64,000 bases of DNA. It comes from Patescibacteria group bacterium. GTDB lineage: Bacteria; Patescibacteriota; Patescibacteriia; Veblenbacterales; UBA10138. Below are positions 4,418 to 15,453 of the stretch, piece by piece. Below the pieces are notes generated by a model. It was not told the origin of the DNA and searched no databases. It saw only the letters and a program-made list of their open reading frames with translations. A program made the translations under genes and the position numbers. Location of the stretch: the NCBI GenBank assembly GCA_018817715.1, contig JAHITT010000004.1, forward strand, positions 125,784-189,783, in the 5' to 3' direction. Within the stretch, counting starts at the first letter, position 1. Each line of letters opens with the position of its first letter.

Positions 4418-5368
4418 TTATTTTAGATATCCTATTTTCTTACCAATCGTAGCAACTTTTTTACCAGCCATTATAAACCCGGGATAGGCAATAGTTAATA
4501 AAACACCAGGTAAGCCCCGCAAGGATTTTTTCTTAAAATCAACTAAACTAACTTGATCTCCTATTTTATCCGCGCTCTTCAATTTATCCAGCGGTTCTTT
4601 TGTTGGCCAAAACCAACCATTAACCTTCATTCTAATCAGCCGGCTAGTATATACTGAAATTGATCGCTTTACTGTCACACATTTTAAAAGGTCAACAGTT
4701 AACAAACCATAAAATTCAAAAACCACTAAAAACCTTTCCAACAAAGAATTCAAAAAACCTTCTGTCAAAACTATTGGCGGTGGTAATTCCAAAGCGATAG
4801 CCAATTTATTCTGTTGACCCAACCAAACAGTCAAGGCGCCAGCCTGTTCCTTATCGGATGATTGGCTAGAATTTATATACCAGATTAATTCTGGATCGAA
4901 CAATCTTAATACTTGCTTGGCTTTATCCTCCACTAACCGATTACTTTTAACCATCACTCCAGTAAAAACCGACCGACGACTGGTAAAGTTATGCAAATCA
5001 ATAACTAACTCTGCTGACTGACATTCTTTAGCTACCACATAAGCTATTTTGGTAGCACGATTATCTTGATTACCAGGGTACTGACGATTAATATCCAAAC
5101 CAGTAAAAGGCTCCTGCCTTTGTTTTTTTAATAAGCCTAAAACATTTACTGCTGGTAAAATAACCAAAGAACCCTTTAATAAAGGAAACTGCCGAAAATA
5201 ACAGAGCAATTTTTCTAACAGAAAAAAGGAAGAAACTTCGGCACCGTGCTGAAGCGCAATAATAACTATTTTAGGGCCTGGCTGTCCGGAAATAATCCGC
5301 CAACGCTGTAAATAAAACAAATTATCATTTGTTTTATTTACCTTAATATAATCTTTTAGAATTTTCAT
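4418..5368 (-). CDS. Zinc hydrolase of the succinylglutamate desuccinylase/aspartoacylase (AstE/AspA, M14-like) family.
   Basis: 316 aa carrying the family motifs in order: IVIIALQHGAEVSS (HGxE), GLDINRQYPG (DxNR) and VIDLHNF (DLH). Confidence 0.55.
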   Translation of the reverse strand: MKILKDYIKVNKTNDNLFYLQRWRIISGQPGPKIVIIALQHGAEVSSFFLLEKLLCYFRQFPLLKGSLVILPAVNVLGLLKKQRQEPFTGLDINRQYPGNQDNRATKIAYVVAKECQSAELVIDLHNFTSRRSVFTGVMVKSNRLVEDKAKQVLRLFDPELIWYINSSQSSDKEQAGALTVWLGQQNKLAIALELPPPIVLTEGFLNSLLERFLVVFEFYGLLTVDLLKCVTVKRSISVYTSRLIRMKVNGWFWPTKEPLDKLKSADKIGDQVSLVDFKKKSLRGLPGVLLTIAYPGFIMAGKKVATIGKKIGYLK

Positions 5369-9973: not shown

Positions 9974-10048
9974 GCCCTCGTAGTTCAATGGATAGAACGC
10001 GAGCTTGCGGAGCTTGTGATGTAGGTTCGATTCCTACCGAGGGCACCA
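9974..10048 (+). tRNA. tRNA-Arg (anticodon GCG as read), with CCA encoded.
   Basis: The sequence folds as a cloverleaf: acceptor GCCCTCG/CGAGGGC, D-arm GTTC-AATGGATA-GAAC, anticodon stem CGAGC/GCTTG, loop TTGCGGA, T-arm GTAGG-TTCGATT-CCTAC, then A-CCA. Confidence 0.8.
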
Positions 10049-10839: not shown

Positions 10840-11082
10840 CATTTGATCTATTTTCATTTTTTCAAAGAATTTGCCGCCAAGGAAAAACTTGAAATTGTCA
10901 GCGGTGTGGCTCCACCGCCTTTCCGAATTTTCGCGGAGGACTTCCTCGCCACCTGCGGCGGCGAAATGCGTTCGGACTAATTCAAGAATACTGCACCAGA
11001 AAACTATTTTAAAACCAGACAATGTATATTGTTTGTTTTTTATTTAATTGGCTTTTACAAAAATAACAGCCATAATGTATTT

Positions 11083-13131
11083 ATGAATAATTTAGCCAAA
11101 TCTTTAACTGATTTTAAGGGCGTAGGCCCGGTTCTACTAAAAAAATTAAACAAACTTGGGCTTAATACTGCTCAAGACTTATTATGGCACCTACCAACCA
11201 GATATGAAGATTTTTCCAATATTAAAAAAATTAAAGATTTAAAACCTAATGAAAAAATAACTATTAAAGGTAAAATTCAAACCATAAAAACCCAACGGCT
11301 CTGGCCACGACGATTAACTTTAACCCAAGCCTTATTAAATGACGGTAGCGGCACTATAAAAGCTATTTGGTTTAATCAACCTTATTTAGCTAAAAATTTA
11401 AAACCAGGTGAAGAAATTTGGTTATCTGGCCAATTAAAAGCCACCACTTATGGCCAGCAATTAGAACAACCTCATTATGAAAAATCATCCTCTCAAAAAA
11501 CCACTACTGCAAACCATTTAATACCTTATTATCCTTTAAGCGATGGCCTAACCCACCATACTTTTAGGCAATTAATAAAACAAATCCTGCCTTATACGCC
11601 GAGTTTAACAGATTGGCTACCAACAGAAATAAAAAATAAATTTAAGCTGCTCCACCATTCTAAAATGCTTACAGAGCTCCATTTTCCATCTGACAAAATA
11701 TCCTTAAGCCAAGCCAGGCGACGGCTAGTCTTTGATGAATTGTATTTAACCAGTTTACAAAATAATTTAGCCAAAATTAAAAGGGAGCAAAAAGAAGCGC
11801 CGCCTATGCCCTTTCAACCAGCCTTAAAAAATTTCGTTAACAAATTACCCTACCAGTTAACTAGTGACCAAAAAATAGCTGCCTGGGAAATAATAAAAGA
11901 TTTAGAAAAAGATAGTCCCATGTTCCGCTTATTACAAGGTGATGTTGGCTCGGGTAAAACAGTGGTAGCCGGCTTAGCCGCTTTAAATTGTTTCCTTAAC
12001 AACTACCAAACTGCTTTATTAGCACCGACCGAGGTATTAGCCAATCAACATTTTAACACCTTAAAAAAAATGCTGGCTGATTTTGATATTTCTTTAGCTC
12101 TACTAACCCAAGGACAAAGTTTAACAAATAATGACAATAAAATAAGTAAGGTTAATCTAAAAAAACTATTGGCTGACGGAAAAATAAATATTATTATCGG
12201 CACCCATACTTTATTGAAACCGGCTATAAAAATACCGCAATTAGGCCTGGTTATTGTAGATGAACAACACCGTTTTGGTGTTAACCAAAGACAAATTTTA
12301 ACCACTAAAAACAAAACACTTGCCCCGCATTTCCTGTCTTTAACTGCCACCCCAATTCCCCGCTCCTTAAGTTTGGCGCTGTATGGCGATTTAGCTATAT
12401 CTTTAATAAAAAAATTACCACCCGGCCGTAAGGCTATTATCACCAAAATAATTACCGACCGACAAAAAAAAGAAGCCTACCAACTGATTGAAAAAGAAAT
12501 TGCCTTAGGTAACAAGGTTTTTATTATTTGTCCTTTGGTGGAAGAAAGTGATTTATTAAACGCTACGGCAGCTAATCAAGAACACACCAGATTACAAAAA
12601 GAAATTTTTCCTAATATAAAATTAGGCTTATTGCATGGCCGTTTGAATAGTGCTGCTAAACAGCAAGCTTTAACAAATTTTAAAAACGGCCACACGCCTA
12701 TATTGGTGGCCACCTCGGTGGTGGAGGTTGGTTTAGATATACCCGAAGCTACTGTTATGGCCATAGAAAACGCCGAAAGGTTCGGCCTGGCCCAGCTACA
12801 CCAACTACGCGGTCGAATTGGCCGATCTAACCTAGACAGCCATTGCTTATTAATAACTAATAATGCTAAAAATGAACGTCTAACCGCCATGATTAAATAC
12901 CCCAATGGTTTTGATTTGGCTGAATTTGATTTAAAAACCCGAGGCCCGGGCAGTCTTTTGGGGGCTACTCAATCCGGTTTTATTAAATTAAAATACTGGG
13001 AACTGGTTAACAGTGAAATTATTAAAATAGTCCGCCAAGCAGTCTTACAAACTATTTCTTTAGATGCAACTTTACAAACCTGGCCTGAACTTAAACTTAA
13101 AATTAAACAAGAAAATACCCATTTAGAATAA
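11083..13131 (+). CDS. recG: ATP-dependent DNA helicase RecG.
   Basis: It has an N-terminal wedge/OB region and the helicase motifs GDVGSGKT, VIVDEQHRFGV and LTATPIPRSL. The start is taken at the MNNLAK ATG (the track ORF begins at 11029). Confidence 0.85.
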   Translation: MNNLAKSLTDFKGVGPVLLKKLNKLGLNTAQDLLWHLPTRYEDFSNIKKIKDLKPNEKITIKGKIQTIKTQRLWPRRLTLTQALLNDGSGTIKAIWFNQPYLAKNLKPGEEIWLSGQLKATTYGQQLEQPHYEKSSSQKTTTANHLIPYYPLSDGLTHHTFRQLIKQILPYTPSLTDWLPTEIKNKFKLLHHSKMLTELHFPSDKISLSQARRRLVFDELYLTSLQNNLAKIKREQKEAPPMPFQPALKNFVNKLPYQLTSDQKIAAWEIIKDLEKDSPMFRLLQGDVGSGKTVVAGLAALNCFLNNYQTALLAPTEVLANQHFNTLKKMLADFDISLALLTQGQSLTNNDNKISKVNLKKLLADGKINIIIGTHTLLKPAIKIPQLGLVIVDEQHRFGVNQRQILTTKNKTLAPHFLSLTATPIPRSLSLALYGDLAISLIKKLPPGRKAIITKIITDRQKKEAYQLIEKEIALGNKVFIICPLVEESDLLNATAANQEHTRLQKEIFPNIKLGLLHGRLNSAAKQQALTNFKNGHTPILVATSVVEVGLDIPEATVMAIENAERFGLAQLHQLRGRIGRSNLDSHCLLITNNAKNERLTAMIKYPNGFDLAEFDLKTRGPGSLLGATQSGFIKLKYWELVNSEIIKIVRQAVLQTISLDATLQTWPELKLKIKQENTHLE

Positions 13132-13204
13132 TTCCAGAATCTAAAAATTATTTTTTAAAATTAAAAATCCTAACGTCTAATACTTAGAATTATGACTTTT
13201 TACA

Positions 13205-13262
13205 AATACTTCCATACTTCCCAGTATCAAAGAATTTCCCTTAATTCTTAATTCTAATCTAT
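13205..13262. repeat. Left copy of a repeat unit (AATACTTCCATACT ... TTAATTCTTAATTCTAATCTAT) that flanks the recG-radA mini-cassette.
   Basis: The same core (aatacttccatact) and TTAATTC-TAATTCT-AATCTAAT tail recur at 13941..14098. Confidence 0.5.
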
Positions 13263-13269
13263 CCAACTA

Positions 13270-13298
13270 TTGACAAATTGCTTAAACTGTGATACAAT
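13270..13298 (+). promoter_or_regulatory. Near-consensus sigma70 promoter: TTGACA, a 17-nt spacer, then TACAAT with an upstream TG.
   Basis: ttgacaaattgcttaaactgtgatacaat; the -35 is at 13270-13275 and the -10 at 13293-13298. Confidence 0.55.
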
Positions 13299-13515
13299 GT
13301 TATATTAAAATAAATAAACTCTTTAACAATTTGTGCAAGCAGGGTATAAACACGTGTCGGTGGCTTCCTCCACCAACGTGCTGCGCAGCTTACCCTGTTT
13401 GTATTTCAAAATAAACAACATTCACAAACGAAATGGAGGAAAAATGTTTAATTCAAGTTAAAAAACATTACTCACAATTTTAATCAATCACTATAATGTA
13501 AAACCTGGAGAAAAA

Positions 13516-13833
13516 ATGGAAAAATTTAGAATAGGCTACTTAATGAATGGTGGGCCCAAAGAAATACCAATAAACATAAATAAAAATCTTCTAATAATTA
13601 CACCAGAAGAAAAAGAAATATCTTTGAAAGAATTTATTGAAAAACAAGTTAAACAAAAAAATAAATTCATCATTGATGACATACGAATTCTGGAAAAATT
13701 AGCAAAAGATGGTATTTTACTCGAAAAATGTCATATCGAAAAATCTATCAGACGTTTAGCATTAACCAAAGATCTTATAGCTGAAGGAGACGTTGATTCA
13801 GCTATAATCCATTATCAAGTAGCACTCCCCTAA
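13516..13833 (+). CDS. Hypothetical small protein (105 aa) carried on the mini-cassette.
   Basis: An RBS ggagaaaaaATG precedes it. The ORF is AT-rich and followed by a strong terminator. There is no recognisable motif. Confidence 0.4.
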   Translation: MEKFRIGYLMNGGPKEIPININKNLLIITPEEKEISLKEFIEKQVKQKNKFIIDDIRILEKLAKDGILLEKCHIEKSIRRLALTKDLIAEGDVDSAIIHYQVALP

Positions 13834-13896
13834 AATTGTGAGTAATTAAGTAATTTATCAGTTTTAAATTACGTAAATTACCCCCCATAATCACAG

Positions 13897-13931
13897 CCGG
13901 CCACCCCGTAAGGTGTCCGGTTTTCTTTTTT
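13897..13931 (+). terminator. Rho-independent terminator.
   Basis: ccggccacc-ccgtaa-ggtgtccgg forms a 9-bp stem with 1 mismatch, followed by TTTTCTTTTTT. Confidence 0.7.
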
Positions 13932-13940
13932 ATAAACCAC

Positions 13941-14098
13941 TAATACTTCCATACTCGCAAGTATGGAAGTATTAGCTAAAAATCGTGACTCTGATTGCTT
14001 TAATCATCATCCCACTCCGCCAGTTGGCGGACACGGGATAAAAACGAAGCTTTTATTCGTGATTCTTAATTCGTAATTCTTAACTCTAATTTATTATC
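13941..14098. repeat. Right copy of the cassette-flanking repeat; it includes a perfect 15-bp-stem hairpin.
   Basis: taatacttccatact-cgca-agtatggaagtatta (13941..13974) is followed by gattcttaattcgtaattcttaactctaatttat, similar to 13241..13262. Confidence 0.5.
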
Positions 14099-14100
14099 CT

Positions 14101-15453
14101 TTATAACCAATCCATTACCTCAAACAAATTGCCAACCACGGAAATTTCTAATACCTTGGGAAACTTTATATTATTAGGCAATTTTGAACAAAGAACTTGT
14201 TTAAAACCCAAACGAGCGCTCTCCTGTAATCTTTTAGGCATATTATTAACTGCTCTTATTTCCCCGCCTAAACCCACCTCGCCAAAAACCACTAAATCTT
14301 TAGCCAGTGGTTTTTTTTGCCGAGCTGATATAACAGCTAAACAAACCGCTAAATCCAAAGCTGGTTCTCGACTTTTTAAACCTCCAGCTAAATTAACATA
14401 AACATCATTATAACCAAATTTAAGACCAACTTTTTCTTCTAAAACAGCTATTAACAATTGTAAACGGGCACTATCATAACCAGTTGTAGCTCTTTTGGGG
14501 TAATTCAATTTAGTTACTCTAGTCACCAAAGCTTGCACTTCCACCAACAAACTGCGCGAACCTTGCTGCAGGGCTGTAATACAAGAACCAGCACCAGCGT
14601 GCCGATCGTCTAAAAATAAAGCTGAGGGATTGTTTACTTCTATTAAGCCTCCTTCCTCCATTTGAAAAACCCCTACTTCATCAGTGGAACCAAATCTATT
14701 TTTAGTCGCCCGTAAAATTTTAACCGACTGCTTATCTAAACTTTCTAAACTTAACACCACATCTACCAAATGCTCAATTGTTTTAGGCCCAGCCGCCTGG
14801 CCAGATTTTATAACATGACCAATTACCATAACAGCTGTTTTGGTTTCCTTGGCCAAAGCTACTAAATCACTCAAAATACTTTTTAATTGATTAGGCGAAC
14901 TGGAACCGACTAATGAATCCTCCGAAACCACCGTTTGTAAAGAATCTATTATTAATAATTTTACAGAATTTTGCCGAACCGCTTGGGCAATAGCCTGAAT
15001 ATTTGTTTCTGCAGTAAAACCTAATTTATCACCTTTAACTTTAAGCCGCCTAGCTCTTTGCTCAATTTGTTCTAAAGCTTCTTCGCCCGAAGCATATAAA
15101 ACTGGTTGGCTACAACTATCAGCCAAAGCTAAAAGTAGAGTAGATTTACCCGCTCCCGGCTCACCAGTTAATAAAGTAACTCCTCCTTCCACTAAACCAC
15201 CACCTAAAACTCTATCCACTTCATTTAAACCAGAAACAAAACGCTTTAAAGATAAATTGCTACCAAGTCTTAAAGAAGTTACGCCGGCCGCTTTGGTTGT
15301 TTTAAGAGAGGAAATTGATTGAGATTTAATTATGGTTTCTGGTTGGCTGGCAATGGTACCGAACTGGCCACATTCAGAACAACGGCCCAACCAGGTAGCC
15401 TGTTGGGCATCACAATTAGAACAAGTATAAATAATCGTTGTTTTAGCCGCCAT
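14101..15453 (-). CDS. radA: DNA repair protein RadA/Sms.
   Basis: It has an N-terminal C4 zinc finger (CSNCDAQ...CSECGQ), a Walker A motif GEPGAGKST, a RecA-like core and a Lon-protease-like C-terminal domain. Confidence 0.9.
   Translation of the reverse strand: MAAKTTIIYTCSNCDAQQATWLGRCSECGQFGTIASQPETIIKSQSISSLKTTKAAGVTSLRLGSNLSLKRFVSGLNEVDRVLGGGLVEGGVTLLTGEPGAGKSTLLLALADSCSQPVLYASGEEALEQIEQRARRLKVKGDKLGFTAETNIQAIAQAVRQNSVKLLIIDSLQTVVSEDSLVGSSSPNQLKSILSDLVALAKETKTAVMVIGHVIKSGQAAGPKTIEHLVDVVLSLESLDKQSVKILRATKNRFGSTDEVGVFQMEEGGLIEVNNPSALFLDDRHAGAGSCITALQQGSRSLLVEVQALVTRVTKLNYPKRATTGYDSARLQLLIAVLEEKVGLKFGYNDVYVNLAGGLKSREPALDLAVCLAVISARQKKPLAKDLVVFGEVGLGGEIRAVNNMPKRLQESARLGFKQVLCSKLPNNIKFPKVLEISVVGNLFEVMDWL

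Follow-up and report, generated by a model that had tools for sequence, protein, structure and literature searches.

We analysed a 64,000-nt stretch of a Patescibacteria genome (hereafter the window), focusing on an imperfect hairpin at 13333–13404 and the 105-aa open reading frame (ORF) downstream of it, ORF105. Both lie on the plus strand in the 970-nt gap between recG (11029–13131, plus strand) and radA (14101–15453, minus strand) of this AT-rich host. The hairpin is probably the structured core of a cis-regulatory leader that acts by upstream-ORF translation attenuation, rather than a free-standing small RNA (sRNA). The following features were recognized in the gap:

13270–13298, plus strand: sigma-70-type promoter, with TTGACA at 13270–13275, a 17-nt spacer and TACAAT at 13293–13298.
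13319–13327, plus strand: leader word CUCUUUAAC, upstream of the hairpin (family consensus CUUUAAAA(A)).
13333–13404, plus strand: structured RNA domain, an imperfect hairpin of 72 nt in the minimum free energy (MFE) fold.
13365–13373, plus strand: pyrimidine strand UUCCUCCAC, anti-Shine-Dalgarno-like, paired with GGUGG inside the hairpin.
13405–13434, plus strand: A/C-rich spacer between the hairpin and the next feature, predicted to be unstructured.
13435–13461, plus strand: Shine-Dalgarno sequence (SD) GGAGG (13435–13439) and mini-ORF ATG TTT AAT TCA AGT TAA (13444–13461), encoding MFNSS.
13467–13482, plus strand: first (5′) arm of a perfect inverted repeat of 16 nt; it starts 6 nt past the mini-ORF stop.
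13507–13833, plus strand: SD GGAG (13507–13510) and ORF105 (13516–13833), a small protein of a fast-evolving, lineage-restricted family.
13831–13846, plus strand: 3′ arm of the inverted repeat, beginning at the ORF105 stop codon.
13895–13931, plus strand: canonical intrinsic terminator, a 10-pair stem with a 1 × 1 internal mismatch, then UUUUCUUUUUU (−14.9 kcal/mol, z = −4.0).

The promoter matched 11 of the 12 consensus positions, was the sole site above 9/12 within 12000–15000, and had an extended −10 TG (13290–13291) ahead of its TACAAT hexamer. A consensus promoter had been proposed here from the letters of the window (the sequence-only reading), and it recurs. TTGACA stands just 3′ of the recG stop in all 12 related loci described below, and a 17-nt spacer to a −10-like hexamer was read directly from the relatives’ sequences. 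Transcription would start near 13305. The leader would then measure ~210 nt up to the ATG at 13516, in an mRNA that encodes ORF105 and ends at the terminator 13895–13931.

The MFE fold reproduced, at the same positions, all three stems and the loop that had been read from the letters. P1 pairs 13333–13346 with 13391–13404 and includes CAGGGUA/UACCCUG. P2 pairs CACGU (13351–13355) with ACGUG (13376–13380), and P3 pairs GGUGG (13359–13363) with CCACC (13370–13374) around the loop CUUCCU (13364–13369). An asymmetric internal loop, CUGCGCAGCU, occupies 13381–13390. The hairpin had a folding energy of −30.7 kcal/mol; 200 dinucleotide shuffles averaged −19.5 ± 2.9 (z = −3.9), and none of them was as stable. 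The opposite (minus) strand folded worse (z = −2.5), and the G-U pairs in P1 are consistent with a plus-strand RNA. The element had also been described as GC-rich amid AT-rich surroundings, and the base composition agrees: its G + C content is ~54%, with 0.41–0.43 in the 100-nt bins over the hairpin and 0.19–0.29 in the flanks. No second copy of the hairpin was found in the window.

A single-sequence search with ORF105 matched only ORF105 itself, so RecG was used to reach orthologous loci. The exact look-up of ORF105 returned near-identical contigs and no more distant relatives. The recG-radA module is shared by 11 further distinct Patescibacteria lineages, whose RecG is 53–66% identical to that of the window. 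This gives 12 members: the window, L093, L091, L004, L084, L085, L087, L089, L090, L092, L094 and L095. They share one order of parts. The recG stop is followed by the TTGACA promoter, a GC-rich rod-like hairpin of 72–133 nt, an A/C-rich spacer similar in kind to that of the window, a strong SD and a mini-ORF of 4–10 codons. After a gap of 54–95 nt come a small ORF (83–140 aa) and a terminator. Beyond the terminator, radA lies on the other strand, in some lineages together with a DNA glycosylase gene. In the long-form members a second small hairpin follows the rod-like one.

The downstream small ORFs are homologous to each other and to ORF105 (51% identity between L084 and L090; E = 4e-6 between L087 and the window), and the leader thus always precedes one and the same gene. 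In the window its ribosome-binding site (RBS) had been placed near 13508, where GGAG (13507–13510) indeed precedes the ATG at 13516. The family has the conserved motifs IG.V.TN.NG..I.IR.D, LM...PG and F.I.DK.TV..LA..GI.L (alignment A5). Its gene is always found in the recG-radA gap, and in some lineages a Pur_DNA_glyco glycosylase gene adjoins it. NCBI annotates ORF105 as a hypothetical protein. Among 1.84 billion proteins the family has only 13 cluster representatives, and no homologue with a known function could be detected. Judged by these comparisons, ORF105 is a real, conserved and fast-evolving gene.

The RNA domain is conserved more in its pairing than in its letters. At such RecG divergence neutral intergenic DNA should be unrecognizable, and MAFFT fails to align the domains. 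All 11 domains that were folded beat their shuffles (z = −2.2 to −6.0; the boundaries were taken from the predicted outer stems, a mild bias in these scores). The P1 sequences differ between members and still pair: GCCGGAG/CUCCGGC in L004 and L090, GCCGGAA/UUCCGGC in L084, GGCUGCC/GGCAGCC in L092, GCCGUCA/UGACGGC in L094, GAUAGAG/CUCUAUC in L091 and CAGGGUA/UACCCUG in the window. We fitted 10 sequences by hand into an N-padded alignment (A7), guided by each sequence’s own predicted fold. In A7 standard pairs filled 96.9% of the cells, both sides had changed at 16 of the 17 pairs and none of 500 shuffles did equally well, counts that are biased upward by the fitting to predicted folds. The signal collapsed when the partner strand was slid by 1–3 columns.

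Because A7 was fitted to the members’ own folds, an alignment-free cross-pairing test was added. The outer 18 nt paired with their own 3′ end at −19.4 kcal/mol and with other members’ ends at −10.8 kcal/mol; for the next 26 nt inward the values were −11.6 and −7.8 kcal/mol. In both cases 0 of 20000 permutations equalled the observed difference. The compensatory changes in homologues that the sequence-only reading had named as its check are thus present, in the hand-fitted alignment and in the alignment-free test alike.

Several words persist along the domain: CUUUAAAA upstream of P1, ACAC behind P1, GGNGG as the apical purine strand with UUU after it, and AUGGUUCC, which leads into the pyrimidine strand CCNCC. 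The first of these occurs as CUUUAAAA(A) in L004, L084, L085, L087 and L090, and as variants in the window, L093 and L089. Domain length and topology vary, with branched forms in L092 and L093. The shortest form is that of the window and L091, which have a 15-nt core, AACACGUGUCGGUGG, in common. L093 is the closest element-bearing relative found, and its 5′ strand GCCGGAGGGUGU bridges GCAAGCAGGGUAU of the window and the long-form consensus.

The domain also has GC-rich palindromic words at unpaired positions: CUGCGCAG in the window (13381–13388), CUCGAG in L091 (5163–5168) and GCCGCGGC in L004 (5770–5777). They are limited to these 3 of the 12 members and could be sites of loop-loop dimerization or protein binding.

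It is very improbable that the hairpin acts at the DNA level, as a REP-like repeat or a site for recombination or protein binding, or that it is a functionless chance structure. Such readings could draw on the direct repeats and the REP-like perfect hairpin that flank the promoter-to-terminator cassette, on the absence of the whole cassette from one lineage, and on the palindrome CTGCGCAG within the hairpin. Against them, the window contains this hairpin once only, a conserved promoter precedes it, and the plus strand folds better. The compensatory changes and G-U pairs of the hairpin work only as plus-strand RNA, and the palindromic words do not extend beyond the three members named.

Between the hairpin and ORF105 lies the mini-ORF, which the sequence-only reading had overlooked and which is the most strongly conserved part of the leader. 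In the window its ATG follows GGAGG after 4 nt (aaaa). The 12 peptides are MFNSS, MFNSS, MKLNTS, MLNST, MYDTS, MYNSS, MNSS, MDTS, MLNSS, MKLNSS, MKKILVFDSS and MFIFFDSS. Their N-terminal part varies in length and sequence, and all 12 end in [F/L/Y/M]-[N/D]-[S/T]-[S/T]-stop. The stop is TAA in 10 members and TAG in two. The final codon is AGT or AGC (Ser) in nine members, TCA (Ser) in two and ACT (Thr) in one; this AGY/TCA/ACT variation points to the peptide and not the RNA sequence as the target of selection, which would favour a small hydroxyl residue.

An SD with an [ND][ST][ST]-stop mini-ORF was found exactly once per member locus. There was no other in the 64-kb window (0.04 expected by shuffling) and none in 31 other RecG loci. 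In metagenomes the pattern GGAGN{3,9}ATGYTTAAYTCAASTTAA gave three L004-type copies, one chance match and nothing else. In viral sequences it gave 0 matches, and a looser pattern gave 41, taken as chance without inspection. A longer ORF running through the hairpin (a 42-aa GTG ORF, 13333–13461) was rejected: the upstream in-frame extension is unconserved, with 5–39 codons of unrelated sequence.

In 8 of the 12 members the segment after the mini-ORF stop can pair with the SD or the start codon of the main ORF. The 5′ arm of this masking helix begins at −6 to +4 nt relative to where the mini-ORF stop codon ends, and the 3′ arm covers the SD or the ATG. The duplex energies are −18.3 (L084), −17.2 (L093), −15.3 (L004), −14.5 (L090), −14.3 (L095), −13.2 (L092), −13.1 (L094) and −13.0 kcal/mol (L091). 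A ribosome with the leader stop codon in its A site would cover the 5′ arm with its footprint. In those eight members the predicted arrangement of mini-ORF and masking arm is the geometry of erm/cat-type translation attenuation.

In the window, the partner of the segment after the mini-ORF is instead the 3′ end of ORF105, and regulation of this copy may therefore differ or be weaker. The two 16-nt arms, 13467–13482 and 13831–13846, pair at −20.0 kcal/mol (z = −5.1) and close a 348-nt loop around the whole of ORF105. This pairing was seen in no other member and is therefore not a family feature. It could possibly mean pairing of the mRNA 5′ and 3′ ends, a substitute for the RBS-masking helix, or an invertible segment.

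The hairpin had been suspected of ending a ~100-nt sRNA or of acting as an attenuator, on account of an adjoining U-run. The run is there, as TTTGTATTTC at 13398–13407, and most of it is paired as the 3′ strand of the extended P1. It remains unlikely that in this lineage the outer stem and the UUUGUAUUUC that follows CAGGGUA/UACCCUG form an intrinsic terminator, producing mostly a ~100-nt RNA with conditional read-through into the mini-ORF and ORF105. Seven U within the 10 nt after that stem speak for it, and in L093 the outer stem is directly followed by CGGC and then UUUUUCUUU. Neither locus has the additional hairpin seen behind P1 in the long-type members. Since the window has no RBS-masking helix, control might there have shifted to the level of transcription. 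The form of the element argues the other way. It is an irregular stem-loop of 58–72 nt with large internal loops, its U-run mostly absorbed into P1. The real terminator (13895–13931), a short GC stem, looks quite different, and a plus-strand terminator scan made no call on 13333–13404. Nor is the 3′ end conserved: the window and L093 alone have a U-run behind the outer stem, and the run is missing from the nine other members with a defined P1 (L004, L084, L085, L087, L089, L090, L091, L092 and L094), most of which carry a further, non-terminator hairpin at that position. Further downstream in the same orientation stand the mini-ORF with its strong SD and the small gene, both conserved, with no other comparable promoter-like site. 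A conserved sRNA end is hence not supported, and partial termination within the window/L093 sublineage is unlikely.

The same reading had offered an RNA thermometer as another option, which fails on position, as the hairpin holds neither SD (13435–13439; 13507–13510). Its third option, a regulatory leader, accounts best for a hairpin inside the 5′ untranslated leader of a conserved gene. No known RNA family matches the element: with Rfam 15, nothing overlapped it at gathering threshold or at E ≤ 10 in the window, and there was no match in L004 or, at E ≤ 5, in 10 further members. SRP (4.5S) RNA, tmRNA, 6S RNA, T-box and the fluoride riboswitch were considered for the long-hairpin shape and the words CCGGAAGG and AUGGUUCC; no model matched, and the words lie in stems, not in defining loops. 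An SRP, tmRNA or tRNA-like gene was likewise rejected, given the lack of an Rfam match at the element and an apical loop CUUCCU instead of a GNRA tetraloop.

We thus return to the leader with translation attenuation. The 12 loci have a conserved architecture, covarying helices, peptide-level conservation and, in most members, masking helices. The conserved module comprises a strong promoter; the rod-like P1-P2-P3 domain, with apical GGNGG paired to the anti-SD-like CCNCC; the unstructured A/C-rich spacer; a strong SD with the mini-ORF; and, in most lineages, a predicted helix that reaches from the mini-ORF stop to the main gene, at its SD or its start codon. Ribosomes would load efficiently on the mini-ORF, and the conserved C-terminal peptide would set or modulate their dwell time at its stop codon. 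A ribosome dwelling there would cover and melt the 5′ arm of the masking helix and so free the RBS of the main gene, as in erm/cat-type systems.

The upstream hairpin may tune this process, with the CCUCC strand swapping between the internal GGUGG and the SD of the mini-ORF. All 12 members have a CCUCC-like strand, and in the window UUCCUCCA could alternatively pair with the SD region of the mini-ORF, UGGAGGAA (13434–13441; duplex −14.7 kcal/mol). The hairpin could also serve for binding of a factor or ligand.

Several points weigh against this interpretation. The preference of the CCUCC-like strand for its own SD is weak (permutation p = 0.023 over 12 members), and pairing with CCUCC would be expected of any SD. 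To the upward bias of A7 is added that automatic alignments of the domains with MAFFT/RNAalifold did not recover P1. Homology of the short-type (window, L091) and long-type hairpins rests on position, P1/P3 similarity and the intermediate L093, not on a statistical model, and is to that extent a proposal. The codon argument may come down to a single evolutionary switch from AGY to TCA. The window itself has no convincing RBS-masking helix (best pairing of the ORF105 RBS −4.1 kcal/mol, z = +0.9), and the helix is also absent in L085 and L089. We infer the start of transcription, the translation of the mini-ORF and the pausing of ribosomes. Finally, with no known function for the regulated protein, no signal or ligand can be proposed from it.

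That the hairpin merely stabilizes the mRNA or organizes its 5′ untranslated region (UTR), with the mini-ORF as a loading or coupling site and nothing sensed, we regard as distinctly unlikely. Rod-like 5′ UTR hairpins can protect mRNAs, which is established, and the modest internal sequence conservation, the range of domain length from 72 to 133 nt and the single leader locus per genome, unlike most riboswitch classes, would suit such a role. Yet classical 5′ stabilizers sit at the very end of the transcript, and this hairpin would begin at least ~28 nt from the 5′ end. ACAC, GGNGG-UUU, AUGGUUCC and CCUCC persist despite diverged helices, conservation of the C-terminal peptide would be superfluous for a site that only loads ribosomes, and an RBS-masking helix beside the mini-ORF stop suggests regulatory design.

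The proposed attenuation leader resembles those of ermC, cat-86 and cmlA in the short, SD-preceded leader ORF upstream of the regulated gene (12/12 members) and in the RBS-masking helix with its 5′ arm at or beside that ORF (8/12). The critical leader peptide of cat-86, MVKTD, has ~5 residues, and the mini-ORF peptides are similarly short. Unlike in erm/cat, the pause would occur at the stop codon, not at an internal sense codon, and a large conserved RNA domain, not known from erm and cat leaders, lies ahead of the leader ORF. The regulated gene encodes a small protein and not a known resistance determinant, there is no known inducer, and the copy in the window has no masking helix.

As in MsrDL, TnaC and PepNL, the conserved part of the peptide is the C-terminus right before the stop, as expected for action with a stop codon in the A site. 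The leader peptide MsrDL is likewise very short; by stalling it keeps the release factor from being accommodated and controls the gene downstream (PMC10314930). PepNL is reported to block termination (PMC11890864). The mini-ORF peptides have no sequence similarity to these three, stalling here is putative, and MsrDL, TnaC and PepNL are not known to have an upstream structured domain such as the one in this leader. MsrDL and TnaC act through transcription termination or Rho, in contrast to the RBS unmasking suggested here.

Like riboswitches and ribosomal-protein leaders, the element is a promoter-proximal structured RNA with covarying helices (in the hand-fitted alignment and the alignment-free test). 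It shares with them and with other protein-binding leaders conserved single-stranded words upstream of the SD and a possible alternative pairing of an anti-SD-like strand with the SD. It differs from them in having no Rfam match, no known ligand or binding protein, one locus per genome and one gene family. The sequesterable SD belongs to the mini-ORF, not to the regulated gene. With an intrinsic terminator or attenuator it shares the GC-rich stem base followed by a U-rich run (window and L093), in contrast to its long and irregular shape (58–72 nt), the pairing of most of the run within the stem and the lack of conservation of the run elsewhere.

A more far-reaching proposal is doubtful: that the mini-ORF represents a new class of ultra-short arrest peptides, hydrophobic-(N/D)-(S/T)-(S/T)-stop, holding the Patescibacteria ribosome at the stop codon in response to a signal, with the rod-like RNA as a second, independent sensor, so that a two-input leader would serve a small protein among DNA-repair genes. 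A penultimate residue of the Ser/Thr class, after Ala, favours chloramphenicol-dependent stalling (bioRxiv 10.1101/2021.06.17.448903). The penultimate residue of the mini-ORF is always Ser or Thr, by analogy a similar context, and because it fits this rule a chloramphenicol-like natural product was considered. The signal could be a ligand of the peptidyl-transferase centre of this kind or, equally, release-factor or tRNA status. The chloramphenicol context and the MsrDL parallel are analogies, not evidence.

A leader ORF with RBS masking is a well-known principle; what is new is to find it together with a conserved rod-like RNA domain, a peptide motif close to the stop and this gene family. 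Patescibacteria (candidate phyla radiation) cannot be grown alone, and to our knowledge almost nothing is known about their gene regulation. Our literature search for leader peptides or RNA motifs in this group found nothing relevant. The lineage-specific cis-regulatory leader was recovered purely by comparative sequence, and at its centre is an ORF of 4–10 codons; in all 12 lineages the amino acids at its final four positions follow one fixed pattern. Though the family is small, the comparative signal is clear. If the peptide does pause termination, a very short new arrest motif would join the few that are known. If the leader is a structural element only, the result is a modest annotation: a leader RNA motif and a small-protein family, both new. 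The leader marks the downstream small protein as something that the cell controls with care.

The lineages also share wider synteny at ~55% RecG identity, comprising SHMT, FolD, a 169-aa ORF, a tRNA, recG, the cassette, radA and a pilin-like gene. The tRNA gene lies just upstream of recG (9974–10045 in the window, 2856–2927 in L084, 2660–2731 in L087, 2558–2629 in L091, and in others). Sub-threshold matches to the Rfam family ‘Ysr141’ recurred inside recG on the minus strand (3792–4004 in L094, 3793–4049 in L092, and in others). The best of them had E = 1.8e-6 and 37 bits, against a gathering score of 196, and they are probably caused by conserved recG coding sequence and not by an RNA gene.

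The cassette is not present throughout the clade. In L083 (RecG 64%) the whole leader and small ORF are absent and a 146-nt recG-radA gap (5047–5192) holds a plain terminator, so the module is dispensable or mobile within the clade. In L003 (RecG 70%) no element was visible in the 340 nt after recG, where the contig ends. In the window, degenerate direct repeats (13202–13262 and 13939–14094; 57 nt at 70% and 21 nt at 90% identity) flank the cassette from promoter to terminator. ATACTTCCATACT is restricted to the recG-radA locus within the 64 kb. The right-hand repeat copy contains a perfect 16-bp hairpin (13940–13975, z = −9), and in L093 the same hairpin sits between recG and the promoter. 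The flanking repeats and the position of this hairpin suggest a history of local duplication, or of gain and loss, of the cassette.

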